Source: an uncultured Candidatus Binatia bacterium
Lineage (GTDB): Bacteria > Desulfobacterota > Binatia > Bin18
NCBI GenBank assembly: GCA_965200965.1
Contig: OZ241744.1
Location: 2,784,001-2,848,000, forward strand
DNA: 64,000 nt
Direction of reading: 5' to 3'
The notes beneath the pieces are model-generated. The model saw only the letters and a list, made by a program, of their open reading frames with translations. It did not search any database and had not been told where the DNA came from. The stretch's first letter is position 1. Each line of letters starts with the position of its first letter. Positions 35,954-58,941 of this stretch are shown here, piece after piece. The position numbers and the translations under genes are program-made.

Positions 35954-38900
35954 GGTCTATCCCCGCGTGTGCGGGGGAACCCTCGGATTGATACAGCCGC
36001 CCCGGTGTGTGAACGGTCTATCCCCGCGTGTGCGGGGGAACCGCGCTCCTGAGCCAAGCCTGCTATGTGGAAAAGGGTCTATCCCCGCGTGTGCGGGGGA
36101 ACCAACTGACAGGGCAGAACATGACGAATGAACCCGGGTCTATCCCCGCGTGTGCGGGGGAACCTCACTGGAGACCTAGAGCACCCGAACGCTGGCAGGT
36201 CTATCCCCGCGTGTGCGGGGGAACCTGGAGACCAACACCCGCGAAGCCTTTCTCTGCGGGTCTATCCCCGCGTGTGCGGGGGAACCTGGAGACCAACACC
36301 CGCGAAGCCTTTCTCTGCGGGTCTATCCCCGCGTGTGCGGGGGAACCGGCGACGTGCGCGACTGCTATAGTCGGTTGAGCGGTCTATCCCCGCGTGTGCG
36401 GGGGAACCTGCCAGGCGGACAGAGTGAACTCGCCCTTTTGGGGTCTATCCCCGCGTGTGCGGGGGAACCACCCGACTTCGGCACGGTCTGGATTGGATGG
36501 AAGGTCTATCCCCGCGTGTGCGGGGGAACCGCTCGTCTTCCAGCAGGTGTGCCAAGGGCATGAGGTCTATCCCCGCGTGTGCGGGGGAACCGCGCTTGCG
36601 CTGGGCTGAGGGTCTGTGTCCGGAGGTCTATCCCCGCGTGTGCGGGGGAACCATTCAACAGCTGGGCAGGGTGATGCGCCCGTCGGGTCTATCCCCGCGT
36701 GTGCGGGGGAACCTCACCGGGAGTTGCGTTCGATCTGGAGGGATGAGGTCTATCCCCGCGTGTGCGGGGGAACCACCTCCTGAACCCACCACCACCAGCC
36801 AGCCAGCGGTCTATCCCCGCGTGTGCGGGGGAACCTCCTGGACTCAGGATAAGAATGCCTCATAGGAAGGTCTATCCCCGCGTGTGCGGGGGAACCATCG
36901 AGTGGGCGCATGTGATAGACGCGGATGAGGGTCTATCCCCGCGTGTGCGGGGGAACCCGACTCTGGCCCTGTTCCGTCTAACTGGACGGGGGTCTATCCC
37001 CGCGTGTGCGGGGGAACCATGGTATCAATCAGTTGATTGACGGCAAGCTGCGGTCTATCCCCGCGTGTGCGGGGGAACCGCCCGGCGGTCACTCCTGACG
37101 GGGTGACGGGGAGGTCTATCCCCGCGTGTGCGGGGGAACCCCCTAGTTAGGAGGGCAAGGGTAAGCCTTAGGCGGTCTATCCCCGCGTGTGCGGGGGAAC
37201 CCACTGCGAGCGGCCACCTGGTAGCCTCGGCGCGGTCTATCCCCGCGTGTGCGGGGGAACCCCTCATCGACCAGGTCCATCACTAGGCGCTTCAGGTCTA
37301 TCCCCGCGTGTGCGGGGGAACCTACGGCGGGGATGTTCTGATAGTCGGACAGACAGGTCTATCCCCGCGTGTGCGGGGGAACCGGGATACCGCCAGGGTA
37401 AGCCGACTCGATATCCGGTCTATCCCCGCGTGTGCGGGGGAACCGCACAGGACCGTATCAACGGACACCGGCAGATCGGTCTATCCCCGCGTGTGCGGGG
37501 GAACCATGACCGACGAGAGCCGCATACCGCAAACGACCGGTCTATCCCCGCGTGTGCGGGGGAACCTCAACAGTCAGCAATCCGGCGCAGTTCACCACAG
37601 GTCTATCCCCGCGTGTGCGGGGGAACCGACATCCGTGTGCAGCTTGCGGGTCAGCTCATCGGTCTATCCCCGCGTGTGCGGGGGAACCCGGACCACAGAG
37701 CGACTTGGCGATGTCGTCTTAGGTCTATCCCCGCGTGTGCGGGGGAACCCAACGTCGGTCTCCGCAAGCTCCGCGGATGCCGGGTCTATCCCCGCGTGTG
37801 CGGGGGAACCCGGCTCTCTGAGCCGGGGCTATCCGTCTCAAGAGGTCTATCCCCGCGTGTGCGGGGGAACCCTATCTATACTAATGTCAATAGCCTGTCT
37901 AAACGGTCTATCCCCGCGTGTGCGGGGGAACCCCATCCACCCGGCGGCATAGGGATCGCTGAATCGGTCTATCCCCGCGTGTGCGGGGGAACCTTTCCAA
38001 AGACGAGGGGCAGACCTGGACGCAAGGGTCTATCCCCGCGTGTGCGGGGGAACCGGAGAAGAAGGCAGGAAGGTAGGGGGAGTTGGAGGTCTATCCCCGC
38101 GTGTGCGGGGGAACCGAGGAGACGCTGAGTGAGGCGGCGCTGCGCCTCGGTCTATCCCCGCGTGTGCGGGGGAACCGCCTCTGTTCCACGCGCTGCCAGA
38201 AGGTGGAGAGGTCTATCCCCGCGTGTGCGGGGGAACCCACCGATTGTTCAGCGCTGTCATATTGGAGATAGGTCTATCCCCGCGTGTGCGGGGGAACCAC
38301 GATTGCAGTTCCTCAATCAGCTTCTTGCACCGGTCTATCCCCGCGTGTGCGGGGGAACCGGTTTGGGTTAGCCTCGGAGATCCATCTCCAGAGGTCTATC
38401 CCCGCGTGTGCGGGGGAACCGTGCTCATGTGTCCTCCTGGGCGCGGGCTTGGAGGTCTATCCCCGCGTGTGCGGGGGAACCGTGCTCATGTGTCCTCCTG
38501 GGCGCGGGCTTGGAGGTCTATCCCCGCGTGTGCGGGGGAACCCTTCCTGGACCAGAAAACCGGCGTTTTCGGCCTGGTCTATCCCCGCGTGTGCGGGGGA
38601 ACCAGAGAAGATAGGCCCGCAGCCTATCGGATAGTGGGTCTATCCCCGCGTGTGCGGGGGAACCATACGCAATATGTACCACCGCGTCGGCCAAGAGGGG
38701 TCTATCCCCGCGTGTGCGGGGGAACCGGGTATGGCTTGAAGGATGGCCTGACTGGACTGGGTCTATCCCCGCGTGTGCGGGGGAACCCGGTCCAGCTACT
38801 ACCCGGCCATGACAGGGGGAGGTCTATCCCCGCGTGTGCGGGGGAACCATCCCCAGCCCCCGCCCTCGGTCGCCAAGTCCGGGTCTATCCCCGCGTGTGC

Positions 38901-41900
38901 GGGGGAACCTCGCAAATGCGCCAGCTCAAAGGGGGAGTCGCGGGTCTATCCCCGCGTGTGCGGGGGAACCGAGCTTACGCGCAAGCTGCACACGGATGTA
39001 ACCGGTCTATCCCCGCGTGTGCGGGGGAACCTGAGCGAAATTAAATCTGACCCGGGCGTGAAAAGGTCTATCCCCGCGTGTGCGGGGGAACCTAGGCGGT
39101 CCGCCGATGTGTGTCGCGTGAAACAGGTCTATCCCCGCGTGTGCGGGGGAACCGCATAACACTCTTTGCTATCAAAGACGTATCCCGGTCTATCCCCGCG
39201 TGTGCGGGGGAACCGCTGGAAGAGCTCTTCTGCTTGCGCCTTCGTGAGGTCTATCCCCGCGTGTGCGGGGGAACCAGGCAGAGGGTCATCCGGCAGTGCA
39301 GGCCTACGGGTCTATCCCCGCGTGTGCGGGGGAACCCCTGGAAGATGCCCTTCGGGTAGACATGAGCCGGGTCTATCCCCGCGTGTGCGGGGGAACCCGT
39401 GCTCTGAGTGCAAAGCCTCCGACTCCCGGGGGTCTATCCCCGCGTGTGCGGGGGAACCCGGGCGATCGATCGGCTCGAGCGCACCGAGTTTGGTCTATCC
39501 CCGCGTGTGCGGGGGAACCGATCATTGGCTTAGCCTTGGTAGGACGCTTAAAGGTCTATCCCCGCGTGTGCGGGGGAACCACGCTGAGCGAGGCGGCGCT
39601 GCGCCTCCTGGCGGGTCTATCCCCGCGTGTGCGGGGGAACCAGATCGATGCGTACCTCCAGGCCGTGGGGCGCGGGTCTATCCCCGCGTGTGCGGGGGAA
39701 CCATCTCGCCTATTCCGCAGAGAAAGGGCTCGAGCGGTCTATCCCCGCGTGTGCGGGGGAACCCGCGGGTACGGCGATCGTGATGCGAGCCGCGACGGTC
39801 TATCCCCGCGTGTGCGGGGGAACCATGACAGGCCGCCATTTGCGTTGCTTCATATTCGGTCTATCCCCGCGTGTGCGGGGGAACCTTTACCGCTGGGTCG
39901 ATACGGAAGCTCTCAAGAGGTCTATCCCCGCGTGTGCGGGGGAACCGAACAAATCCACGCCGCCCATGACGAGGAAGACGGTCTATCCCCGCGTGTGCGG
40001 GGGAACCTTGCCCGCGAGCTCTGCGACCCGGTCTATGCAAGGTCTATCCCCGCGTGTGCGGGGGAACCCGCGTCACTCCCAGCGTGGTGGCGGCGCAGCT
40101 CGGTCTATCCCCGCGTGTGCGGGGGAACCCGCTATGTTGATGTTCAACATTGGCTACGCGCGGGTCTATCCCCGCGTGTGCGGGGGAACCATCAACCAGG
40201 GCGGACAGCGCCAGCAGCTCATGGGTCTATCCCCGCGTGTGCGGGGGAACCCAGTACCAGGATGTCCCTGACTCTATGCGCCGGGGTCTATCCCCGCGTG
40301 TGCGGGGGAACCCCAAGAGGCGATCCGCCGTAACGTCCCAGATGGGTCTATCCCCGCGTGTGCGGGGGAACCTCTTCCAGCATGCACGGCAACGGGCCCG
40401 GGCCGGGTCTATCCCCGCGTGTGCGGGGGAACCACGGGGAGGCGCATGTGCGTTTGGCCTATCTGTGGTCTATCCCCGCGTGTGCGGGGGAACCGATCGG
40501 GCCGTGCTGGCCAAGTCTCGCATCCGGGGTCTATCCCCGCGTGTGCGGGGGAACCGCGCTCTGAGACTCCCCCTCGATATAATCCGGCGGTCTATCCCCG
40601 CGTGTGCGGGGGAACCTTGGGCGGTAGTCATGTTGAAACCCCTTTCAGGGGTCTATCCCCGCGTGTGCGGGGGAACCCAAAAGGGGGCTGTATGTATGAG
40701 TCATTCATGCGGTCTATCCCCGCGTGTGCGGGGGAACCGAATACCTGGCTAGCCTTTTTGGGGCTAGCTGCGGTCTATCCCCGCGTGTGCGGGGGAACCC
40801 GTGAGGCGCTTTCAAGCAATGGGGCTGACAAAGGTCTATCCCCGCGTGTGCGGGGGAACCTCAAGAAGACAGTCGTTCACGGCAAGCTGGTGGGGTCTAT
40901 CCCCGCGTGTGCGGGGGAACCCTTACGCCTGGAACAATACCACGGCGACAACCCGGTCTATCCCCGCGTGTGCGGGGGAACCTTGTTGATCTGCCTCTGA
41001 TGACTGAGCGCAAAAGGTCTATCCCCGCGTGTGCGGGGGAACCCCCGGCGCAGTCACCATGTACGGCACCCGGTACGGTCTATCCCCGCGTGTGCGGGGG
41101 AACCGGCTTCGGGTTGGTGTACAAGTTCCACAACTCAGGTCTATCCCCGCGTGTGCGGGGGAACCAGGATAGCCAGTGACGTACATGCACCACTGGCAGG
41201 TCTATCCCCGCGTGTGCGGGGGAACCCGCGGTTCTTCCCACGGAGCCGATGATCCGAACGGTCTATCCCCGCGTGTGCGGGGGAACCGCGTTGCGCCAAC
41301 GGATCAAGTACTTGATGACGGGTCTATCCCCGCGTGTGCGGGGGAACCCATCGCGATTTTTTGGCGCGTCGCCCTGCTCAGGGTCTATCCCCGCGTGTGC
41401 GGGGGAACCCGCGCCTCGCTCCTGCAGTTTTTTGTCCATGCTGGTCTATCCCCGCGTGTGCGGGGGAACCCCAGAGAGATTTTTTTTAGGGTCTTTAGGA
41501 AGGGGTCTATCCCCGCGTGTGCGGGGGAACCTACTGGCAGTACAATGATCCCCACGACAATCAGGGTCTATCCCCGCGTGTGCGGGGGAACCTTACCAGT
41601 ATTGGCGTCAGGATCGCGAAAGAAAGGTCTATCCCCGCGTGTGCGGGGGAACCAACCGACGGTAGAGGCCCAAATACACACCAGAGGGTCTATCCCCGCG
41701 TGTGCGGGGGAACCCATAGACTGCATAGCAGCGAGGCGAGCTTCATGGGTCTATCCCCGCGTGTGCGGGGGAACCGGATCCGCCAGCTGGGTGAGAAACG
41801 GCAAGATGGGTCTATCCCCGCGTGTGCGGGGGAACCCGCACCGGTCCCCGACCGAACTGGCGGCTGTACGGTCTATCCCCGCGTGTGCGGGGGAACCATA

Positions 41901-44900
41901 CTCCGGAGACTCGGCGTGCCACGGGACTTCGGTCTATCCCCGCGTGTGCGGGGGAACCACTACGCTCGGCTGGCTGCCGCGTCTTGAATACGGTCTATCC
42001 CCGCGTGTGCGGGGGAACCCGATCCGCGGGCCTTTGGTCCCGTGCGCAAATGGGTCTATCCCCGCGTGTGCGGGGGAACCCGCTGCGTCGTCAAGGCGTT
42101 GTCAAACCGCCCAGGTCTATCCCCGCGTGTGCGGGGGAACCACAGGTAGAACGGTTGCTCACTATTCCCCAGAGGGTCTATCCCCGCGTGTGCGGGGGAA
42201 CCCATCGGTGTTAGGCGCTCGGTGCGTCTTCACAAGGTCTATCCCCGCGTGTGCGGGGGAACCGCGTCAGCCGGGATTGTAGCCTCTCCTGCCTCGGGTC
42301 TATCCCCGCGTGTGCGGGGGAACCTCTTTATCTCAGCGGTGGAGCAGCTATCCAAGAGGTCTATCCCCGCGTGTGCGGGGGAACCACAGGCATCGAGGAG
42401 AGCACGGGCCGCATGGACGGTCTATCCCCGCGTGTGCGGGGGAACCACCCAGTTAGCCGACTGACGGAAATATTCCAACGGTCTATCCCCGCGTGTGCGG
42501 GGGAACCAGAATCCCCCGCCCGCTTGGTGGCAGACCCGTAGGTCTATCCCCGCGTGTGCGGGGGAACCACAAGGTCAATCAGAGCCTCAATCAGATATGG
42601 AGGTCTATCCCCGCGTGTGCGGGGGAACCCTGGACCAGCCGGAGGCGTAAATGGCATTCTGGGGTCTATCCCCGCGTGTGCGGGGGAACCACCTTCAGGC
42701 GAGAACCGCCTTGAGCAACCCCAGGTCTATCCCCGCGTGTGCGGGGGAACCATCGAAACAGGAGCCAGTACCCAACCGTTATAGGGTCTATCCCCGCGTG
42801 TGCGGGGGAACCGTTCAGCCCGATTTCGGTACGGTATGGATAGGCGGTCTATCCCCGCGTGTGCGGGGGAACCGAGGATCGCCAGTCGGCTTCCGGGTAT
42901 GGACGCGGTCTATCCCCGCGTGTGCGGGGGAACCCGTCATCTTATCTCCGAGATCGACATAGCCAAAGGTCTATCCCCGCGTGTGCGGGGGAACCTCCAC
43001 TGGCAAGAGCCGGTCGTTCGGCACGAAGGGTCTATCCCCGCGTGTGCGGGGGAACCGCCAACACGCATCGTCGATGACGCTGACGGTACGGTCTATCCCC
43101 GCGTGTGCGGGGGAACCCATGCGAGTATTGCCGGGTAGCGAAGAAGCAAAGGTCTATCCCCGCGTGTGCGGGGGAACCACCCAGTTAGCCGACTGACGGT
43201 AGTACTCCAGCGGTCTATCCCCGCGTGTGCGGGGGAACCGCTGGTAAGCGGGAAACCAAGTATCGCGTGACAGGTCTATCCCCGCGTGTGCGGGGGAACC
43301 CGTCTGATATTTCGGCGACAAAGCGCGGTTGGAGGTCTATCCCCGCGTGTGCGGGGGAACCAATCGAACCGACCTTCATAGCGGAATGTAAAGGGGTCTA
43401 TCCCCGCGTGTGCGGGGGAACCCCCATCCAGTCGATACGACCTTCGAACCGGAAGGGTCTATCCCCGCGTGTGCGGGGGAACCTACGGCAGCCTACCGTA
43501 CAGATAGTTGATCGCGGGTCTATCCCCGCGTGTGCGGGGGAACCGACGGGCTTCCTACTTTCGTGAGACGCTGAATGGGTCTATCCCCGCGTGTGCGGGG
43601 GAACCACTATGGTCCGGCGGCTGGGCGGTGGTGGCGCAGGTCTATCCCCGCGTGTGCGGGGGAACCACTTGCTTGCAAGTCATGCGCAACCGTCGTCACG
43701 GTCTATCCCCGCGTGTGCGGGGGAACCACCGAGACCAAGGCGGAAACGACGATACGCGGGGGTCTATCCCCGCGTGTGCGGGGGAACCCATCGCCCGATA
43801 TCCAGGCCCAGGCTGTGCGTAGGTCTATCCCCGCGTGTGCGGGGGAACCACCACAGACCAATCGAGCCCGGGCAAGAAAATAGGTCTATCCCCGCGTGTG
43901 CGGGGGAACCGCCGCCCAACCTTCTTCGTAGATGTGCCTCAGCGGTCTATCCCCGCGTGTGCGGGGGAACCGCGGAGCGCCCGGGCGCTGGGCCGCGTTG
44001 ATTGGGTCTATCCCCGCGTGTGCGGGGGAACCACTTCCAGAAGACGGGAGAATGGCGCTGGTTTGGGTCTATCCCCGCGTGTGCGGGGGAACCTGCAAGA
44101 CCTGAGCGATCATTGCGCGATGTTGGGGTCTATCCCCGCGTGTGCGGGGGAACCGTCCGACAGTAGATGATGCTCACATGCCGTCTCGGTCTATCCCCGC
44201 GTGTGCGGGGGAACCACTGGCTGACCAATGTCAGATGCACCAGTCTTGGGTCTATCCCCGCGTGTGCGGGGGAACCGTTCAGCCCGATTTCGGCACGGTA
44301 TGGGTCGGGGGTCTATCCCCGCGTGTGCGGGGGAACCACTCGGCCTTCCTGGCTCAATACGGTGTCCAGGGGTCTATCCCCGCGTGTGCGGGGGAACCAC
44401 AATCTGGCTCAACTCGGCTGGCTCTGGCCTCGGTCTATCCCCGCGTGTGCGGGGGAACCGTCAAGCGGGGAGCTCGTATCGTCCCAGTACGGGGTCTATC
44501 CCCGCGTGTGCGGGGGAACCGCTGCCCTGCGTCGTTGGCTGATGCCTTTGCGCGGTCTATCCCCGCGTGTGCGGGGGAACCCCCGTCGGCTTGGGCTGAT
44601 GTGTGGTCCGAGGCGGTCTATCCCCGCGTGTGCGGGGGAACCAGACACCACAGCCAGCCATGTTCCGAGAAGAACGGTCTATCCCCGCGTGTGCGGGGGA
44701 ACCAGACATATATGCCACCCGGCGATTTTCTCGCCAGGTCTATCCCCGCGTGTGCGGGGGAACCGCAGCTGCTCCGCTCCACTGGCATCTGGCCGCGGGT
44801 CTATCCCCGCGTGTGCGGGGGAACCCGAAGGAGAAAATGACCCAGTGGGAATACATAGGGTCTATCCCCGCGTGTGCGGGGGAACCCGATTTAGCCATGC

Positions 44901-47900
44901 TATCGATCCACTTTCGAAAGGTCTATCCCCGCGTGTGCGGGGGAACCGGCCCTATCGCGTCTCATCATCGCCGGTCAGGAGGTCTATCCCCGCGTGTGCG
45001 GGGGAACCGCTCATATCCGGTACTAAAGTACCAGTCCGGAAGGTCTATCCCCGCGTGTGCGGGGGAACCACATGGATCCAGCGCCCAAACTCGGAAATGA
45101 CTGGTCTATCCCCGCGTGTGCGGGGGAACCTAGTGAATCTCACCACGCGATCGGACATGCTGAGGTCTATCCCCGCGTGTGCGGGGGAACCGGCCCTGGA
45201 GCCACCAACCAGGCGCAATCCAAGGGTCTATCCCCGCGTGTGCGGGGGAACCATGCATCTGAGGCATCAGGCATCCTCCCGAAAGGGTCTATCCCCGCGT
45301 GTGCGGGGGAACCTGGCAATGGATGAAGGGGCATGGGTGAAATTTAGGTCTATCCCCGCGTGTGCGGGGGAACCCGATAACGTGGACAACTCCAAGCCTC
45401 CCCAGGCGGTCTATCCCCGCGTGTGCGGGGGAACCACACCTCCTCTCTTAACTCGATCGTCTTGCTCCGGTCTATCCCCGCGTGTGCGGGGGAACCCCGG
45501 CCTTGGTAGAGGTACGCTGCAGGGCCTGAGGTCTATCCCCGCGTGTGCGGGGGAACCTATCCTGGACGAGCTCGGCGAACTAGAGGAGTGGGTCTATCCC
45601 CGCGTGTGCGGGGGAACCTCACTGGATGTAATCGCGCAGGCGGGCATCCAGGGTCTATCCCCGCGTGTGCGGGGGAACCACTGGCTAAGTCCGGCCTGGT
45701 CCCTGAGGTCCAGGTCTATCCCCGCGTGTGCGGGGGAACCGTCCGGCGCTCAACGGTGATCTGACATCCCGCAGGTCTATCCCCGCGTGTGCGGGGGAAC
45801 CGCACCAATGCCCAGGACGGGCCGAACCTGAACAGGTCTATCCCCGCGTGTGCGGGGGAACCCGTGCCCAGAAGATGGCTATTGGAGGTATCAGGGGTCT
45901 ATCCCCGCGTGTGCGGGGGAACCCAGTCAAAAACAGCATCCACCACGACCGACGGAGGTCTATCCCCGCGTGTGCGGGGGAACCGACTTTGGCACGGTCT
46001 GGCTTGGTTGGTCGATGGGTCTATCCCCGCGTGTGCGGGGGAACCACCCAATTAGCGCTTTGCCTGAAATACTCAAGCGGTCTATCCCCGCGTGTGCGGG
46101 GGAACCCTCGTGCGTCCAGTGCTACTGATCGGTGCTGCAGGTCTATCCCCGCGTGTGCGGGGGAACCTCACTGGATGTAATCGCGCAGGCCGCCATCCAG
46201 GGTCTATCCCCGCGTGTGCGGGGGAACCATCTGCTGGATACTGGTGTAGTCTCTGGCACGGGGTCTATCCCCGCGTGTGCGGGGGAACCTGATATGGCCT
46301 TCTCGTTCTGCCACGGAAGGACGGTCTATCCCCGCGTGTGCGGGGGAACCCTTCTTTGTCTCTTGCCACTTGGGATGGGTCCCGGTCTATCCCCGCGTGT
46401 GCGGGGGAACCACTTTCACCAAGGAGGTGGAGAGTATCCGGGGGGGTCTATCCCCGCGTGTGCGGGGGAACCCCGAAACGGGCCGGCGCATAGTAGAACC
46501 AATAAGGTCTATCCCCGCGTGTGCGGGGGAACCCTCGGACCGGAATATCCGGTCCGAATCCTATTGGGTCTATCCCCGCGTGTGCGGGGGAACCCCTGAC
46601 GCCGGCGAGATATTTGCTTGGCTCTCAGGTCTATCCCCGCGTGTGCGGGGGAACCGCCGGTGCCGGTAGAGGTCTACTGTCTGGTCTCGGTCTATCCCCG
46701 CGTGTGCGGGGGAACCATTGCCTGGACTTATGGGCGTATCTACGACAATGGTCTATCCCCGCGTGTGCGGGGGAACCAAGATAGGCCTGGATAGCCACAC
46801 GCATGGGCCGGGTCTATCCCCGCGTGTGCGGGGGAACCATGTCCGAAATGCCTTTAAGGCCCAGTACTGTCGGTCTATCCCCGCGTGTGCGGGGGAACCG
46901 AAAGATAATCGCGCATGACCTTACCACGGCGCGGTCTATCCCCGCGTGTGCGGGGGAACCCAGCGTGACCCCCGGCCGGTCATCCCAGACTGCGGTCTAT
47001 CCCCGCGTGTGCGGGGGAACCGATTACAAGGTGTACCGGAGAGCATCCAGCCGCGGTCTATCCCCGCGTGTGCGGGGGAACCAAATCTTACGCGATCACG
47101 GGTAAGGCCCGATGCGGTCTATCCCCGCGTGTGCGGGGGAACCGAGGACGGACTATGAAGAAGAAGCTCAAACCCAGGTCTATCCCCGCGTGTGCGGGGG
47201 AACCAACGATGCGACACCGACTGTGAGAAGGGTATCAGGTCTATCCCCGCGTGTGCGGGGGAACCGGGACGCGACCCCGAACTGAAAGAGTTCACAGGGG
47301 TCTATCCCCGCGTGTGCGGGGGAACCTTCCACTACGGACAAACTCACCTTATCGGGATGGGTCTATCCCCGCGTGTGCGGGGGAACCGGGGCTATGTTCT
47401 TCGTGCTGAATCGTTGCAGCGGTCTATCCCCGCGTGTGCGGGGGAACCATAAGCTCTGCGTTTACATCAGTCTCGACCGGGGGTCTATCCCCGCGTGTGC
47501 GGGGGAACCGTGGCGACCGAGAACTGACACATATCCCGGCCGGGTCTATCCCCGCGTGTGCGGGGGAACCACAGCTATCGGAAAGATGGATAAACCCAAA
47601 GCGGGTCTATCCCCGCGTGTGCGGGGGAACCGATGACCCTCATGCATCACCTTCAATCTCAAGAGGTCTATCCCCGCGTGTGCGGGGGAACCAGACATAG
47701 CCATCTTCCTGATTTCTTCCTTCTGGGTCTATCCCCGCGTGTGCGGGGGAACCCAGCCCAACCTCCGCCAGCGGGATTTCCTGGCCGGTCTATCCCCGCG
47801 TGTGCGGGGGAACCGCTGACGAACTCTATTCCCTGGCGGCGCTCAGCGGTCTATCCCCGCGTGTGCGGGGGAACCGAGCTTTCGCCGCGTCCACGAACAG

Positions 47901-49583
47901 CCTGTAGAGGTCTATCCCCGCGTGTGCGGGGGAACCGCCTATTGATCGCTCCCTTCCCTGACCTCTGCCGGTCTATCCCCGCGTGTGCGGGGGAACCGCC
48001 GTGGCGGTGGCCTCGGAGCCGTGAAGAGCGGGTCTATCCCCGCGTGTGCGGGGGAACCTATCAGAACATCCCCGCCGTAGTAGTCAGCCACGGTCTATCC
48101 CCGCGTGTGCGGGGGAACCGCCGCCAAGGACGCCAAGCTCACGGGCAAGTCAGGTCTATCCCCGCGTGTGCGGGGGAACCCACTATTCGGACGGATACCA
48201 GGCAGATACGGCAGGTCTATCCCCGCGTGTGCGGGGGAACCTGGAACATCAACGACCACACCGAGCTGGAAGTGGGTCTATCCCCGCGTGTGCGGGGGAA
48301 CCCCCAACATCCGCTTTCATCCAACTCTTCCTACCGGTCTATCCCCGCGTGTGCGGGGGAACCAGCGCCTCAAACCGGGCGTTCATCAACGCAAACGGTC
48401 TATCCCCGCGTGTGCGGGGGAACCCCGCTGCCCGGTTAGGATACTGCATGAGGACCAGGTCTATCCCCGCGTGTGCGGGGGAACCTCTCTGAGATTTCAC
48501 AGATCACAACCCCAAGCGGGTCTATCCCCGCGTGTGCGGGGGAACCGCCGTGAGCCGGGGATAGTCTCTCAATCCAGGAGGTCTATCCCCGCGTGTGCGG
48601 GGGAACCGCGGCGTCATCGCGCTCCTCGTCGAGTCGGCACGGTCTATCCCCGCGTGTGCGGGGGAACCCTGCTGAAGTCAAATATGACGTCCGTATTCAA
48701 CGGTCTATCCCCGCGTGTGCGGGGGAACCCTGGGGATGGCTCATGCTGTTGCCCCTTGCTTCGGTCTATCCCCGCGTGTGCGGGGGAACCTAACCAACCG
48801 CCCCTTCGGGGGCAATCCCAAGAGGTCTATCCCCGCGTGTGCGGGGGAACCATGACGTACCGAGCAAGCGCGAAGGCTATGGAGGGTCTATCCCCGCGTG
48901 TGCGGGGGAACCAGAAACCATCGGCCTAGGCGGGGTTTTGGCAGAGGTCTATCCCCGCGTGTGCGGGGGAACCATGCTGAAGATCATGCACGAAAAGCTC
49001 ACTGAGGGTCTATCCCCGCGTGTGCGGGGGAACCCCGCCAGCCCTCGCGCCATCGGGGTAGCCGTCAGGTCTATCCCCGCGTGTGCGGGGGAACCTATTC
49101 CTGGCCCGAAAATCCCGACGGGGTGAAGGGTCTATCCCCGCGTGTGCGGGGGAACCGTCTACAGCGAGGTCCATGATCTCGCCGTCAGCGGTCTATCCCC
49201 GCGTGTGCGGGGGAACCAGCTTCGCCATCGTGTCCTCCTCAATCTCAAGAGGTCTATCCCCGCGTGTGCGGGGGAACCGTCACATCAGCATAAGTCAGGG
49301 TCAAAAAGTAGGGTCTATCCCCGCGTGTGCGGGGGAACCACGCTAATGTGGTCCGGCGTGGGCATTGCGTCGGGTCTATCCCCGCGTGTGCGGGGGAACC
49401 AGTACCGTTGTCAGCCATTAGGGAGCCTCCGAAGGTCTATCCCCGCGTGTGCGGGGGAACCTGGACGACGCCGAGGATAGCGAAACCAATAGGGGGTCTA
49501 TCCCCGCGTGTGCGGGGGAACCTCCCACAAAGGACGGTATGAGACGCCCAAGAAGGGTCTATCCCCGCGTGTGCGGGGGAACC
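35954..49583 (-). CRISPR. Type I-E CRISPR array, ~224 repeats / ~223 spacers
   Basis: 28-bp repeat GGTTCCCCCGCACACGCGGGGATAGACC (minus strand), period ~61 bp. Count estimated as span/61. Orientation inferred from the leader next to cas2 and the ATAGACC handle. Confidence 0.99.
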
Positions 49584-49661
49584 TCTCCTGATTTTATTAC
49601 ACTTTTGGCGCACTGCGTCCAGCGTCGGGTGTGGGAAGACGCGATTCGGATTGTCAAAGAG
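49584..49661 (-). promoter_or_regulatory. CRISPR leader
   Basis: Between the cas2 stop and the first repeat; contains CTTTGACAAT and an AT-rich TGTAATAAAAT just before the repeat. Confidence 0.75.
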
Positions 49662-50834: not shown

Positions 50835-50862
50835 GGTCTATCCCTGCGTGTGCAGGGGAACC
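50835..50862 (-). repeat. Solitary CRISPR repeat variant at the cas6/cas1 junction
   Basis: GGTTCCCCTGCACACGCAGGGATAGACC, 26/28 identical to the array repeat; the two changes pair with each other. Confidence 0.93.
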
Positions 50863-53565: not shown

Positions 53566-54162
53566 TTAGTCTGTTGATTGCGGGGCATTGCGCCGCTCGG
53601 CCTGATAGTAGGTGCGGGCGATACCGCGGCGTGCTGCTTCGGCCTGTTTTTCGTTATAGCCATCGTTCAGGATGAAGAATGTCATTTCACGCCAGTTGAA
53701 GGGTTGGTTGGCAGCGGCCAACATGCGGAACAGCCGTGCCAGCAGAACACGCAGCATCGGCCCTCGTGCCGTCAGCAGTCGGTTCAGGCGTGTCTCGCTG
53801 TAGAAAGCGGCTGTCCGCCGGGCGTCACCGCCGAAGAACAACGCTCGGCCAACAGGCATCGATCCGTCGTGGGCGGAGCGTCGGTCAGCCGTGCCGGTCA
53901 TCAGCGCGATGCCGTGCAGGATGAGCGCCCATTTGCGTTCGAGGGTGGGGTTGCCCAACAGTTCCCGGTATGCCAGGAGCCGCCAGAAGGCCGCTGCATC
54001 GGGGGCGTCCGGGTCCATGCGCCGCAATTCGGCTAGATCGCCCCGGCGAAAATCGGGCTGTGATAGAACATGGGCAAAACCCGCCGCAATAGCGTCCCAA
54101 GTCTGCTGTTCGCCTTCCAGCGTCGGCGTAGCGGACGCTGGAAGAGGTTGCCTATGTGTCAT
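53566..54162 (-). CDS. cse2: Type I-E Cas11 (Cse2/CasB)
   Basis: GDLAELRR, SETRLNRLL and IARTYY motifs; operon position. Confidence 0.88.
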   Translation of the reverse strand: MTHRQPLPASATPTLEGEQQTWDAIAAGFAHVLSQPDFRRGDLAELRRMDPDAPDAAAFWRLLAYRELLGNPTLERKWALILHGIALMTGTADRRSAHDGSMPVGRALFFGGDARRTAAFYSETRLNRLLTARGPMLRVLLARLFRMLAAANQPFNWREMTFFILNDGYNEKQAEAARRGIARTYYQAERRNAPQSTD

Positions 54163-55763
54163 TCCTGGTCCTCCTTATTCGCTTCGTCAAACAGAAACGG
54201 CAGTCCTTTCGGTCTACGGAGCCGCCCCTCAAACAGCCCCTCGGCCTTGACCCGGGCGCGGTAGCGGTGAATGGCCGGGCAGGGCAGGGTGGCGGTTGCG
54301 TCTTGCAGGATGCGGCGGGCGTGGTCAATCACGCCGTCTTTGCGGTTCATCAGCCACGCCTTTCGGATGCGCTTGCGTTTGTCGTCGTTGTCGGCCTCAA
54401 ACTCGGTTTGCAGGTCGTCAAAGAATCGGGCGTCAACGATTGCGTCCAGCCTGTCCGACCAGGGATTTGCCAGCGTGCGGTGCTCCGAGCTGGTCTTGTC
54501 ACCCTCACCGCGGGCGGCAAACGTTGCGATAGCGCGGCGCACGATGCTCTTCACAGTGCCAATCTGCTCAATACGCTCTTGGGCGAGGTCGCCCAATTCC
54601 TGAGCCTGTGCACTGTTGCGGCGCAGCATAGCTGTTCTGGCCTTGCTCCTGATGGGGATGATGCGTTCGTGATAGCCTTCGGTCATACCCTGCTTTCTGG
54701 TGTTGCATTTTAGACTTCGGGCGACGAGTTGCATCGTTTCCGGGGAATGCTGTTCAGACGGTGTTGGCTTCAGCAGGACCGGGTGTTCCCAGTCGGCCGA
54801 GATCAGGTATTTCTTCACCAGATCATAGGTAAAACCCTTTGGGCCGATATTGAGAGCTTCGCCCTTTGTCGTGTTGATGGGGGTCCACGGGTCGCCTGTA
54901 CGCCCTTTGATCTTCTCTGCCTCAATTCGTGTCGCGTCCGAGTTTGCCTTGAGGCCGCTGAGCTTGCCGTCCGTCCCGAGGCGCAGGCGGACACGCCGGC
55001 AGACCTCGATGTAGTAGGGGGCGAGTTCGACCAGCGGCAGTTTCTCCGCCTTGGTCCCATCCCAGGGGATGGTCCAGAGTAGGCCGATATCGCCATTGGT
55101 CAGAGAGAGATCATCCATCCGTTCCAGTAGGGCTATGATATCCCGCCGGGCGTGCGCACCCGGTCGTAGGGAGGGTGTGAGGCTGAACGCTGGGCGTCCA
55201 GAATAAGCGCTCTTGAGCCTAGAAACAGAGTAATTGCCACGACCGTTCTGAGCCGAGGTAGTTTGCAGGGTAATCAGCGCAAACAACCAAGCGTCTACGC
55301 TTGCCTCGGTCGCCACCTCCGATTTGAGGTCGTGGTTCTTGGACGTGACCAGCATATCCAACTTGTCTGGAGTTGGGAGAATGTTCTTTTTGTCCTCCTC
55401 GGCTCTCTCGTAGGTATCGGCCTTGTCTGCGGAGGCCGGCGGCTGCATGAAGGCCGGTTCTGTGATGTCATTCACCACTACCTGCCAGGGTTCGTCGTCT
55501 GGATAGTCCGGCGTCAGTCCACGGATCAGGGCCACCCACTCTGCCGCGTTCTCCGGTGGTTCACCGCGGCCGGCCCGGCGCAGTGCCATCACCCCGAGCT
55601 GGACGAGAAAGGCGTGCCAGGCGTGACGCTGGTGGGGGCGCAGTGCGGGAAAAGTGTTTACCTCGTCCTGCATCAGCGCAGCGAAGATCTCCGGCAAGGA
55701 GACCTCCACGCCCGCGCCTGCCGTATCCATCCGAATCAATGGTTCCGTGAGAATGTTGAGCAT
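54159..55763 (-). CDS. cas8e: Type I-E Cas8e (Cse1/CasA)
   Basis: NILTEPLI, LRPHQRHAWHAFLVQL, YIEVCRRVRL and TGDPWTP motifs; first Cascade gene. Confidence 0.9.
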   Translation of the reverse strand: MLNILTEPLIRMDTAGAGVEVSLPEIFAALMQDEVNTFPALRPHQRHAWHAFLVQLGVMALRRAGRGEPPENAAEWVALIRGLTPDYPDDEPWQVVVNDITEPAFMQPPASADKADTYERAEEDKKNILPTPDKLDMLVTSKNHDLKSEVATEASVDAWLFALITLQTTSAQNGRGNYSVSRLKSAYSGRPAFSLTPSLRPGAHARRDIIALLERMDDLSLTNGDIGLLWTIPWDGTKAEKLPLVELAPYYIEVCRRVRLRLGTDGKLSGLKANSDATRIEAEKIKGRTGDPWTPINTTKGEALNIGPKGFTYDLVKKYLISADWEHPVLLKPTPSEQHSPETMQLVARSLKCNTRKQGMTEGYHERIIPIRSKARTAMLRRNSAQAQELGDLAQERIEQIGTVKSIVRRAIATFAARGEGDKTSSEHRTLANPWSDRLDAIVDARFFDDLQTEFEADNDDKRKRIRKAWLMNRKDGVIDHARRILQDATATLPCPAIHRYRARVKAEGLFEGRLRRPKGLPFLFDEANKEDQE

Positions 55764-55945
55764 ACGTCTGCTTTCCCTTTCAGTCGCTTCTGGTCAGAAG
55801 CGTGTCTGTTCTGTACCCTTACTCGCATCGCCCCGTATTGAGTCTGCAACGTCAGGGACGCAGGAGAGGGGAGGACAGCGCGAACAGCGGCAATATCCGG
55901 TATCACCATTTCCACCAGGGCTTCGGTAGCCTTGTTTTGTTTCAT
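55736..55945 (-). CDS. 69-aa hypothetical ORF leading the Cascade transcript
   Basis: Strong RBS AGAAAGGAGAAAAA-ATG just after the promoter; overlaps the cas8e start by 28 nt. Confidence 0.45.
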   Translation of the reverse strand: MKQNKATEALVEMVIPDIAAVRAVLPSPASLTLQTQYGAMRVRVQNRHASDQKRLKGKADVCSTFSRNH

Positions 55946-55973
55946 TTTTTCTCCTTTCTTTTAGACATAGACA

Positions 55974-56001
55974 TTGAAACACAAAAATTAGATGTTAGAC
56001 T
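55974..56001 (+). promoter_or_regulatory. Divergent promoter for the mini-array RNA
   Basis: TTGAAA, 16 bp spacer, TAGACT with an extended -10 TG at 55993-55994; ~18 bp upstream of pseudo-repeat 1. Confidence 0.5.
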
Positions 56002-56013
56002 TGGATTTGTCAA
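55985..56013 (-). promoter_or_regulatory. Sigma70-type promoter for the Cascade operon
   Basis: TTGACA (56013-56008), 17 bp spacer, TAATTT (55990-55985). Confidence 0.75.
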
Positions 56014-56018
56014 GCTTT

Positions 56019-56101
56019 GATTCCCCGCACGGGGATAGACCGTTTTGTGTTGCGATGTCAAACATCGTGCTCAAATTTCCCCGCACACGCGGGGTTGTCC
56101 T
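56019..56101 (+). ncRNA. crRNA-like regulatory mini-array (CreR/CreA-like)
   Basis: GATTCCCCGCACGGGGATAGACC, 32-nt spacer, AATTTCCCCGCACACGCGGGGTTGTCCT. The spacer matches 55986-55968. Confidence 0.85.
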
Positions 56102-56127
56102 GTGGTGTCCGGGGCTGTGGCGGTCCA

Positions 56128-58941
56128 TTACATCCGACGCAGTCCCAGACGGTCGTATTGGAATCGGGCGTCACCGAGGCGGAAGGTGAAGCCGCCGGCG
56201 GTCAGCTCGGGCGCGACCGGCTCGTCGCTGGCCAAGTCACGCGCCAGATGGTTGGGAATGGCTATCTGGGAGATCGTTTCGCCGGTGAAAGGGCTGGACG
56301 GGGCCGGCTCTAACTCAACCGCTATGCCCTCATCGCCCAGCCGCGTGCGTATCTTCTCTTCCAGAGAGCCAAAAACCACGTCCTGGTTGTCCGTGAAAAA
56401 GGACTTATCGCGCCGGACGATGGCGCTCCGGGCGGTCAAGCCCTCGGCCAATTCCGCCCCCATCATGCTGTTGGCGTGATCCCGCCAAGCGTCGCCCAGC
56501 TCTGTGGTAATGGCTTCCAACGCCTCGGGGTGGGTCGTTCGTTCGACCAGCTCCCGGTTCATCTCCGGGATGCGCCACGGTCTGGCGTTCTCGGTATGCT
56601 CTACGATCAGCCGTCGCGTAGCCTCCAGGATGCGCAGGTCCTTATACACATGACCGTGCGGCCCCAAGCCGTTTCGGCCCGGCCCTTGAGGAGTGAACGT
56701 GTCATCAGATTGACCGGAAGGCGACACATTGACTCCTTTTGCCAGCAGGGGCGAGAGATCGGCACCCGCCGGCAGCAGCACGACGCAACTCGGCGTCTCA
56801 TAGCCGGGCGGGCGATCGTGCCGTTGGTGTCGGTGCAGGCGGCCAATTCGTTGAAGCAGTACGTCCATCGGGCACAGGTCGGTTATGAGCAGGTCGGCAT
56901 CAATATCGAGGGACTGCTCCAGGGTCTGGGTCCCCACAATAATGCGCCCGCCGGCCGGCCGGTCTTTGCCGAGTTGCTCTTCAACCGCTCTGTCGAGGTG
57001 GCGGCGGTCACTGGCGGCGAACCGGCCGTGGTGGAGGGTGGGAGTGCCGTTGCAGGCGTACAGCAGGCCGCGTTCGTCAGACAGGGCCGTTTTTTCCAGG
57101 GTCTGCTGGGTGTTGATCGCGTGGCCGACTGTGTTGCGAATGACCAGCACCTTCGCCCCGGTGCGGGCCGCGTGCAGGGCGCGTTCGGCCACCTGAGCGA
57201 AGTCATCCATAGCCGTGGCCTCAATCTGTACCGTTTTTTCTTTGCCAAAGATGAACCGTGTCGCCGTCCTCTCGTTCGGGTAAGACGATTTATCTTCATT
57301 GTGAGCGACGGCGATCATCTGTTCACCACCGCCGGCCTGGGTTGTGACCGCGGGGTAGGGGGCGGTGATGGTTTCACCGAGTGGCGGAAGGTCCTGCAAA
57401 CCGGATACCCAGCGACGACGTGCCACCGCACCTAGCGTGGCCGACATCAGCACCGCGTAGCCGCCGGCCCCGATATGGGCGTCAAGCAGAGCTTTGAGAA
57501 TGGCCCGCATATACGGGTCGGAGGCGTGGACTTCATCCACGACCAGCAGGTGACGCGCCAGGCAGGCGGCGCGCAGATGGGCGTGTTTCACCTTGAGGGC
57601 TGCCATCATGGCCTGGTCTACCGTGCCCACGGCAATTTGCGCTGCCAAGTAGCGCTTGGCGCTTTCGGCGGCCCAGCGGCGTTTTCCGGTGGCGACACCG
57701 GGATCATCGTCCCACCAGACCTCGTAGTTCGGCAACTGCCGACCCTCGGCGGTGCCGGCGCGCAGATAGCCGGGGACGGCTAACACCGGCTCCGGTCGGT
57801 GTTTGTTAGGGAACAGATTGGCAATGAAGCGCGTGACGCGCGCGTGCATCTGGCTGGCCGCGGCCCTGGTCGGCAGGGCAAAATACAGCCCGTCCACCAG
57901 TTCGGCCTGATACAGTTGGGCAAAGCGCCACAGGGCGGCCTCGGTTTTCCCAGAACCGGTTTCGGACTCGATGATGACCAGCCGCTCATCCGTCGGGACC
58001 GCCCTTACCACCTGCTGGACAGGGTTGGGCGTGGCATTGGGAAGGCTGAACAGCGGGCCGAAGTCGGGGAGAGCCGGCAAGGAGTGCGCGTGTCGCCTTC
58101 CGGTCGATCTGATGACATGTTCACTCCTCAGGGTGCGAAAAGCGGTCCGCTGACTTTTCAGGTTCAGCCCGATTTCCGAAACCGCCCGCTGGGCGTTTTG
58201 GCGCGCTGTGCTGATGTAGTTGTCGCGCGGCTCGGCGCAAAACGGAAAATTGCGCTCATCGGAGCCGATCCAGTCGGCCAGTATGCACAGGCCCAGAAAC
58301 ATATGCTGGAAGGCGGACGTGGACGGCAGGGGCGGCGCATCGGGACTGAAGGCCAACGGGAACCAGTGGCGCACGAGCTGGCTGATGCGCTCCACATGAC
58401 TTTTGGGGTGCAACTTGCCAAAGTCACGCCATACTTTGGGGTTGGGGTGTCGCACGCCTAGTTGCAGGGGCGAGCCGTGATGCGACAGCGCAGCGATGAA
58501 CAACCCGCACACGGTCTCGCCCTCGCCGGCGTCCCAACTCAGCAAATCATCCCACCAGCCCAGGGCGTCAAAGAACCAAGCGGATGTTGTCGCATCAGTG
58601 CCATTCAGGACCGGCGTCAGGTCGGCGATGTGACCGGCGCGATGTGGCATTTTCTTGTCCGCTGGCGCGTCCGCGGGCTGCCAGATCTGCGTCTGAAAGC
58701 CGATGTTGACCTTACCGATGTCGTGGAGGGCGGCAAAGACGGCCAGCCGCGCCGCGGTTGCGTCGTCCAGCCTGTCCAGCCCGCCGGCCCGCGCCAGGCC
58801 TTGCCCGATGGTCGGCTGCTCCAGCAGGGCCTTAAAGCAGACCCCCACATCGGCCATGTGGTGCTCTAACAGATGGATACGCTGTGGGTTTTCTCGGTCC
58901 GATTTTGCCCAGAAGGCCCGGGTGTAGGCTGTGGCTGTCAT
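56128..58941 (-). CDS. cas3: Cas3 HD nuclease-helicase
   Basis: WAKS, H..DV, LHDIGK, LADWIGS, SETGSGKTEAA, VDEVH, MSAT, EQSLDID.D and QRIGRLHRH motifs. Confidence 0.97.
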   Translation of the reverse strand: MTATAYTRAFWAKSDRENPQRIHLLEHHMADVGVCFKALLEQPTIGQGLARAGGLDRLDDATAARLAVFAALHDIGKVNIGFQTQIWQPADAPADKKMPHRAGHIADLTPVLNGTDATTSAWFFDALGWWDDLLSWDAGEGETVCGLFIAALSHHGSPLQLGVRHPNPKVWRDFGKLHPKSHVERISQLVRHWFPLAFSPDAPPLPSTSAFQHMFLGLCILADWIGSDERNFPFCAEPRDNYISTARQNAQRAVSEIGLNLKSQRTAFRTLRSEHVIRSTGRRHAHSLPALPDFGPLFSLPNATPNPVQQVVRAVPTDERLVIIESETGSGKTEAALWRFAQLYQAELVDGLYFALPTRAAASQMHARVTRFIANLFPNKHRPEPVLAVPGYLRAGTAEGRQLPNYEVWWDDDPGVATGKRRWAAESAKRYLAAQIAVGTVDQAMMAALKVKHAHLRAACLARHLLVVDEVHASDPYMRAILKALLDAHIGAGGYAVLMSATLGAVARRRWVSGLQDLPPLGETITAPYPAVTTQAGGGEQMIAVAHNEDKSSYPNERTATRFIFGKEKTVQIEATAMDDFAQVAERALHAARTGAKVLVIRNTVGHAINTQQTLEKTALSDERGLLYACNGTPTLHHGRFAASDRRHLDRAVEEQLGKDRPAGGRIIVGTQTLEQSLDIDADLLITDLCPMDVLLQRIGRLHRHQRHDRPPGYETPSCVVLLPAGADLSPLLAKGVNVSPSGQSDDTFTPQGPGRNGLGPHGHVYKDLRILEATRRLIVEHTENARPWRIPEMNRELVERTTHPEALEAITTELGDAWRDHANSMMGAELAEGLTARSAIVRRDKSFFTDNQDVVFGSLEEKIRTRLGDEGIAVELEPAPSSPFTGETISQIAIPNHLARDLASDEPVAPELTAGGFTFRLGDARFQYDRLGLRRM
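56687..58130. repeat. 52-bp hairpin element, two inverted copies inside cas3 (56687-56738 and 58079-58130)
   Basis: TGAGGAGTGAACRTGTCATCAGATYGACCGGAAGGCGACAC-N4-ACTCCTT, 46/52 identical. Confidence 0.88.

Follow-up and report, generated by a model that had tools for sequence, protein, structure and literature searches.

A probable CreR-type mini-CRISPR matched to the predicted promoter of a small non-cas gene and the Cascade genes in a type I-E locus

The closest described relatives of the element reported here are CRISPR-derived guides that repress promoters within CRISPR-Cas loci. In Salmonella enterica the type I-E CreR RNA repressed the casA promoter 8.6-fold through E. coli Cascade, and this repression was relieved by an extra crRNA or by AcrIE8 (Liu et al., 10.1101/2023.03.10.532045). 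The CreR target has an AAG PAM, is matched over 15 consecutive nucleotides and lies ~140 bp upstream of casA; no toxin gene is seen with it in the accessible text of that study. Shmakov et al. (10.1101/2023.03.03.530964) called the variable cargo between mini-arrays and cas genes hot spots of shuffling and noted TA enrichment there for type I-E as well. The cargo examples in the available portions of their paper are type I-D and known TA genes, and these portions describe no hairpin inside a spacer. In the subtype I-F CrePA system of Acinetobacter baylyi, CreP is a 103-aa KilA-C protein of demonstrated toxicity (10.1101/2024.01.05.574328). The CRISIS systems are of type I-C, consist of single repeat units and include tested anti-phage systems, and the term I-E is absent from the main text of that report (10.1101/2024.12.27.630466).

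We analyzed a 64,000-nt stretch of DNA from an uncultured Candidatus Binatia bacterium (hereafter the window). Its minus strand carries a type I-E locus that is complete, in the order cas3, a 364-nt gap, cas8e, cse2, cas7, cas5, cas6e, cas1 and cas2. The cas3 gene (56128–58941) is an open frame with HD and helicase matches. The first Cascade gene, cas8e (54159–55763), was recognized at an E-value of 7e-13, which is under the curated NCBIfam cut-off. The genes cse2, cas7, cas5, cas6e, cas1 (cas1e) and cas2 (cas2e) follow cas8e as far as 49662. Beyond them lies the main CRISPR array (35954–49583, minus strand in the crRNA sense), which has 224 identical 28-nt repeats and is a source of competing crRNAs. 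An Rfam search of the window gave 0 matches.

Several additional features of this locus were observed. A lone repeat copy (26/28) at 50835–50862, at the cas6e-cas1 junction and in the crRNA sense of the mRNA, may be a Cas6e cut site within the operon transcript. Within cas3 there is an inverted repeat with 55-nt arms (56684–56738 and 58079–58133) that are 87% complementary and 1340 nt apart. Four of the 223 array spacers match their own chromosome 33/33 (G000:C1, positions 222867, 3130262, 1890485 and 2069142). Their sites follow the non-AAN triplets CAA, TCA, CAA and CCT, and three of these spacers belong to the six array units that have A as the first base. One of the four falls in cas5/Cmx5/DevS of a second, type I-MYXAN system, and the site of another is presumably ilvC.

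The gap between cas3 and cas8e contains a mini-array at 56018–56101 on the plus strand, in which two degenerate repeats enclose one spacer. The initial annotation had recognized two such repeats antisense to the cas genes, with a handle in the first and a hairpin in the second, and this anatomy was confirmed. It is the anatomy of a type I-E autorepressor, with PsiR1 supplying the 5' handle and PsiR2 the 3' hairpin. PsiR1 (56018–56042) lacks 4 nt of the stem-loop, forming a 5-bp stem (56022–56035), and keeps the 8-nt 5' handle (56035–56042), which is conserved in alignment A6. PsiR2 (56074–56101) is identical to the array repeat at 20 of 28 positions and has an intact 6-bp hairpin (56079–56094), the predicted Cas6e site, while its 3' end is decayed. 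The spacer (56043–56073) is 31 nt long, compared with a canonical length of 32; its positions 1–19 match the neighboring promoter and the remainder does not. In the lowest-energy fold of the precursor, which makes up 0.5% of the ensemble, PsiR2 pairs with downstream sequence and the Cas6e hairpin is not formed. Both this alternative fold and the shortened PsiR1 stem count against autorepression.

The target (55968–55986, minus strand) spans the predicted start site of the cas-side transcript. Its PAM, AAT (55987–55989, minus strand), is inside the predicted -10 box. The spacer-promoter match proposed at the outset, 16/19 with mismatches at positions 10, 12 and 18 behind AAT, was found as described at 55986–55968. 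Cas6e cuts 3' of the repeat hairpin, and one base in six is flipped out by Cas7. If positions 6, 12 and 18 are left out of account, 15 of 16 positions pair, making this the best site in the genome other than the spacer itself (3,620,516 bases, both strands); the next-best sites are one at 14 and 15 at 13. When all 19 positions are counted, one other genome site ties at 16. Only 2 of 20,000 shuffled spacers reached the observed 14/15 in the same intergenic region, which is AT-rich (38% GC versus 61%), and the 223 canonical spacers reached a maximum of 11 there. The pairing is a partial, seed-side match at the predicted promoter of the effector genes. The mismatch at position 10 adjoins the seed, and it was counted against autorepression.

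The AAT flank agrees with the AAN targets of homologous loci and with the main array. Among the 223 array units, C (82), T (70) and G (65) are common as the first base and A (6) is rare, which fits PAMs of AAT, AAC and AAG. The type I-E PAMs listed in PMC8482600 include AAT and AAC. Comparison of part of the array (42000–49600) with 50,697 phage records, intended to read the PAM from protospacers, gave no match, no spacer match of at least 27/33 was found in 19 stretches from relatives, and overlaps among spacers gave no PAM reading. One degenerate pattern for the guide had 0 exact matches in viral contigs.

The target overlaps a predicted sigma70-type promoter for a small gene and the Cascade genes (55985–56013, minus strand), consisting of TTGACA (56013–56008), 17 nt and TAATTT (55990–55985). 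This promoter was named in the initial annotation, and it is present in the sequence with a perfect -35 box. However, its -10 box has only 3 of the 6 consensus letters and the promoter scan did not call it. The only call of the scan here is a plus-strand site, the predicted divergent promoter of the mini-array (55974–56001, TTGAAA-16-TAGACT with an extended -10). Among relatives, 22 of the 23 lineages show a -35 box of at least 5/6 at a distance of 20–60 nt on the upstream side of the target.

It had also been suggested that Cascade at this site closes a second feedback loop by covering the -35 box of the divergent promoter. The target does include that box (55974–55979). When 80 offsets were scored for an antisense -35 box in 23 lineages, target position 13 came out best (mean 5.74 versus 4.26 ± 0.53), but a full antisense promoter at position 13 reaches 8/12 in only 4 of the 23. 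These observations weakly suggest that a second loop is plausible at this locus, and as a general rule it is weak.

Further evidence that guide and target belong together comes from relatives of the locus. We collected 184 loci with a Cas8e relative (152 after removal of duplicates), in which a motif scan made 42 mini-array calls at 41 loci, with 40 distinct spacers. The covariation sought in homologous cas3-cas8e regions is present: for 36 of the 40 spacers the best in-region match, at the locus's own promoter, follows AAN (AAT 20, AAC 12, AAG 3, AAA 1), where the PAM played no part in the search and the AA background is 5.9%. The remaining four match at 9–12 of 15 behind other triplets, and among them is L020, a locus in which the promoter is lost and cas8e is truncated. 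In the 36 AAN cases, positions 1–5 and 7–11 pair in 32–36 and positions 6 and 12 in six each; pairing at positions 1–17 is partly selected by the best-match search, in which positions 6 and 12 and the PAM were unscored. Spacers pair with their own target at a mean of 13.0/15 compared with 6.2 on targets of other loci, and the own target is best or tied for 33 of 36 spacers, in a set of relatives that are not independent of each other. A profile scan of 90 non-duplicate loci with identity of at least 50% found 48 mini-arrays, of which 45 have an AA-PAM target, and made no call in the other 42 of these close loci; it missed L177, which the motif scan had found. The same clade-trained profile, which is unsuited to E. 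coli, gave no mini-array in the cas3-casA gap of strain K-12.

In contigs from study P2 the sequence of the window is reproduced without change at 56064–56300 and with 14 differing letters over 55600–55911. Between these segments, 111 other letters replace 55912–56063; the replacement keeps the handle, which is followed by the start of a different but related guide. Guide, promoter and gene start are therefore exchangeable as a block, as seen in this near-identical strain.

Other arrangements occur among the relatives. In L029 (2900–3100) the regulatory guide is the first spacer of a three-repeat array whose other repeats deviate little from the canonical form; this may be a mini-array at the beginning of its decay. 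In four more distant I-E loci (L017, L018, L042 and L064) the mini-array is in sense and downstream of the targeted promoter, and in L017 and L018 it lies inside a 71–73-codon leader frame running into cas8e. Stand-alone arrays of 2–5 repeats are found away from the cas locus in relatives (L201–L205), including two genomes without a match to the Cas8e query (G056 and G061).

Based on the published type I-E mechanism and the covariation, both of which support the CreR-like reading of the initial annotation (Cascade placed at the cas promoter by partial pairing), we consider it highly probable that this mini-CRISPR guide steers the cell's own Cascade to the neighboring promoter and damps expression of the cargo and Cascade genes. 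The claim that Cascade represses its own operon is supported as well, except that the first gene under the promoter encodes a small non-cas protein. By analogy with known I-E biology, the mini-array would be transcribed on the plus strand from about 56008, and Cas6e would cut after both hairpins to give an RNA of ~60 nt (56035–56094). Cascade loaded with this guide would read the AAT in the -10 box and open a 17–19-bp R-loop across the start site, which would block RNA polymerase without cutting. Cutting is not expected because 17–19 bp is too short to lock and call Cas3; for another I-E complex, the S. thermophilus Cascade, R-loops of less than 28 bp neither locked nor triggered Cas3 (PMC6859484). 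The 223 ordinary crRNAs would compete for Cascade, and through this competition a shortage of Cascade, or its inhibition by an anti-CRISPR, would relax the repression. The cargo protein would then be made first.

The small gene (55736–55945, minus strand) was overlooked in the initial annotation. It encodes 69 aa, is located between the predicted promoter and cas8e with its start 41 nt past that of the target, and has an AGGAG ribosome-binding site (55951–55955, minus strand). It is a non-cas gene, conserved as a protein, under the promoter that the guide targets, and we refer to its homologues as family A. Purifying selection is indicated by pN<pS in 64 of 66 pairs, in a protein-guided alignment that favors this outcome, and third positions vary most. 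A profile search of 1.84 billion representatives gave 48 matches, 44 of them 46–99 aa long, and homologues are in the same place at 18 of 90 loci. The family-A profile matched in 1 of 301 genomes of the phylum and 3 of 201 of the class, and was not found in the others searched.

AlphaFold2 predicts a four-strand beta protein (strands within residues 8–44, pLDDT 87–90 at residues 11–40, mean 74.8). The protein had no match in Pfam, PHROGs, PADLOC, Atlas or a phage tblastn search. Foldseek returned nothing at E<=0.001, and the best VIA-align Z scores were 3.1 and 2.7, which leaves the fold unassigned and does not establish it as new. A metagenome scan with the single 69-aa protein found no relative. 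Homology to KilA-C had no Pfam, PHROGs or fold match, and the predicted all-beta fold gives it no support. A PDB sequence match to a 21-residue stretch of MauG (E 0.015) was rejected. We also rejected a sequencing error as the origin of the separate small frame, since an independent contig, which may be from the source sample, shows 0 differences and homologues keep the overlap with cas8e.

The same slot holds different genes in related loci. Of the 18 family-A matches in 90 loci, 14 have a mini-array, and 12 of these have a start and a binding site by rule. A second family, B, is a coiled coil. Elsewhere the slot is either empty or occupied by Cys-rich proteins, an HNH_3 protein or DUF3800. 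On a rapidly built Cas8e tree (52 rows, with L183 and L020 dropped as truncated and cargo labels assigned by us), family A requires 12 changes for 14 rows, no fewer than with shuffled labels (234/500), and we conclude that the cargo has been swapped often.

In three loci (L011:560–1333, L004 and L020) a DUF3800 gene and then a conserved GC-rich hairpin stretch lie between the targeted promoter and cas8e; the gene is frameshifted in L020. A DUF433/DUF5615 pair, or pieces of it, is antisense in or near the cas3-cas8e gap of several Binatia loci (L012:367–926, L009, L013, L015, L005 and L016), with the domain match tested in L012.

The nature of the cargo raises the possibility, which we regard as real but tentative, that the guide serves chiefly to keep a toxic or defensive protein in check, as in CrePA or CRISIS. 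This would add to autorepression and would not exclude it: an anti-CRISPR that removed Cascade from the promoter would release the 69-aa protein, which would stop growth or phage spread. No other gene precedes the small gene on the far side of the target, and it has a good ribosome-binding site and the signature of purifying selection described above. In L029 the target of the guide is on the antisense strand, immediately in front of a family-B gene pointing away from cas8e. HNH_3 and DUF3800 are among the slot cargo, and cargo is scattered over the Cas8e tree. Intact cargo also goes with the mini-array. All four family-A members without a mini-array lack a start, and the six family-B genes with a mini-array all have one (6/6) while the one without is a fragment. 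However, this co-loss does not require toxicity, since mini-array, promoter and gene start are adjacent and a single deletion removes all three. Furthermore, no toxin-like family, fold or motif was found in the 69-aa protein, at least 13 loci on the tree have a mini-array and no visible cargo gene, the alignment method favors pN<pS, and in L002 a shortened family-A copy is fused in frame to cas8e.

That fusion would fit better with a harmless accessory, either a leader through which translation is coupled to cas8e or a protein that modulates Cascade, in which case the guide would serve autorepression only. The small gene also shares 28 nt with the start of cas8e, read in a different frame, and this overlap is kept in the close homologues P0002, P0004 and P0005. 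Several observations speak against such a role, which we consider slightly less likely than a toxic or defensive one: most family-A genes stop 40–70 nt short of cas8e, sister loci have unrelated proteins in the same slot, and the residue-level conservation of the four strands exceeds what a leader peptide needs. It is very improbable that decay or chance alone accounts for the element, as a relic or an accidental match without a present regulatory role; the repeats are degenerate, the region is rich in A and T and decayed copies occur in L020 and L171, but the PAM, the six-base periodicity and the covariation argue otherwise, as do the intact handle, hairpin, target, promoter and cas frames of this locus and the close strain in which the handle is kept beside a different guide.

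The CreR-type guide itself has a predicted internal hairpin at 56052–56068, as the first reading of the sequence had claimed. Alone, this hairpin is not significant (z -1.5, p 0.09). Across the family, the 36 guides have a mean folding z of -1.6 relative to shuffles, with 20 below -1.5, compared with a mean of -0.12 and 25 of 223 below -1.5 for canonical spacers. With one guide per lineage, z is negative in 25 of 26, which gives the hairpin comparative support. The tendency to fold is family-wide and the register is variable. A recurring register, picked afterwards from 13 diagonals, accounts for 70 of 120 cells versus 57.7 ± 4.0 in permutations and shows 22 double-sided changes versus 12.4 (2/500 shuffles). 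A single fixed consensus helix for the spacer hairpin was rejected, being only 60% paired and not predicted by RNAalifold.

Guide lengths cluster at 20–21, 26 and 31–33 nt, in steps of ~6. Excess folding is seen in all three 26-nt guides and is not seen in six of the eight shortest. We infer two alternative fates for the unpaired guide tail, namely deletion in Cas7-sized steps and folding back. A 3' tail folded back on the paired part would likely make the guide a weaker loader than ordinary crRNAs. In the accessible portions of the crlRNA papers, hairpins are mentioned only in repeats or 3' ends, and our literature search found no paper on a hairpin inside a guide.

Considering these observations together, we tentatively propose that a I-E clade found in Binatia, Dehalococcoidia, Caldilineaceae and Entotheonella carries a swappable cassette of guide, promoter and small effector. 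The 69-aa beta protein may be the founder of a new toxin or anti-phage effector family under Cascade repression, possibly the first I-E protein-toxin version found in our searches. Removal of Cascade by anti-CRISPRs would release it, and the trigger threshold might be set by the guide tail, folded or stepped by 6 nt. No tested protein toxin under a I-E guide was found in the literature searched, where subscription papers were largely outside coverage. The slot behind the presumably repressed promoter contains several small-protein families without a name (beta protein, coiled coil, Cys-rich, HNH and DUF3800), which are candidates for anti-anti-CRISPR or anti-phage functions in type I-E. In addition, the 40 natural guide/target pairs display the six-base geometry of Cascade in evolution, and they suggest a design rule for repress-only guides in which the unpaired tail is shortened by 6 or 12 nt or folded back.

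The autorepression mechanism is not new, having been published for the Salmonella I-E CreR, and the self-repression part therefore matters little. As in Salmonella (Liu et al., 10.1101/2023.03.10.532045), a degenerate mini-CRISPR lies upstream of cas8e/casA, PsiR1 provides an 8-nt 5' handle and PsiR2 a 3' handle, and a PAM-flanked site in the cas8e promoter region is partially matched. Unlike Salmonella CreR, the PAM here is AAT in the -10 box, the guide is of near-full length and its tail is predicted to fold, and the first gene encodes a small protein. Like the mini-arrays of Shmakov et al. (10.1101/2023.03.03.530964), this one lies between cas3 and cas8, is opposite to cas3, and has a PAM-flanked target, with mismatches at positions 6 and 12 in the family. 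In contrast to the TA genes of that study, no library match exists for the cargo families of the present loci (beta protein A, coiled coil B and Cys-rich). The Acinetobacter baylyi CrePA (10.1101/2024.01.05.574328) shares with this locus a small gene that lies between cas3 and the effector genes and has a promoter matched by the guide of a mini-array. However, our locus is I-E, the protein is unrelated by every search and a putative toxin, and the promoter is seemingly shared with the Cascade genes. In type I-C CRISIS (10.1101/2024.12.27.630466) a crlRNA, as is proposed here, represses promoters of diverse non-cas genes before effector genes; the present locus is type I-E and has two repeats instead of a single unit. 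The swappable cassette, with an unnamed protein first in line, is the locus-specific addition to this known class.
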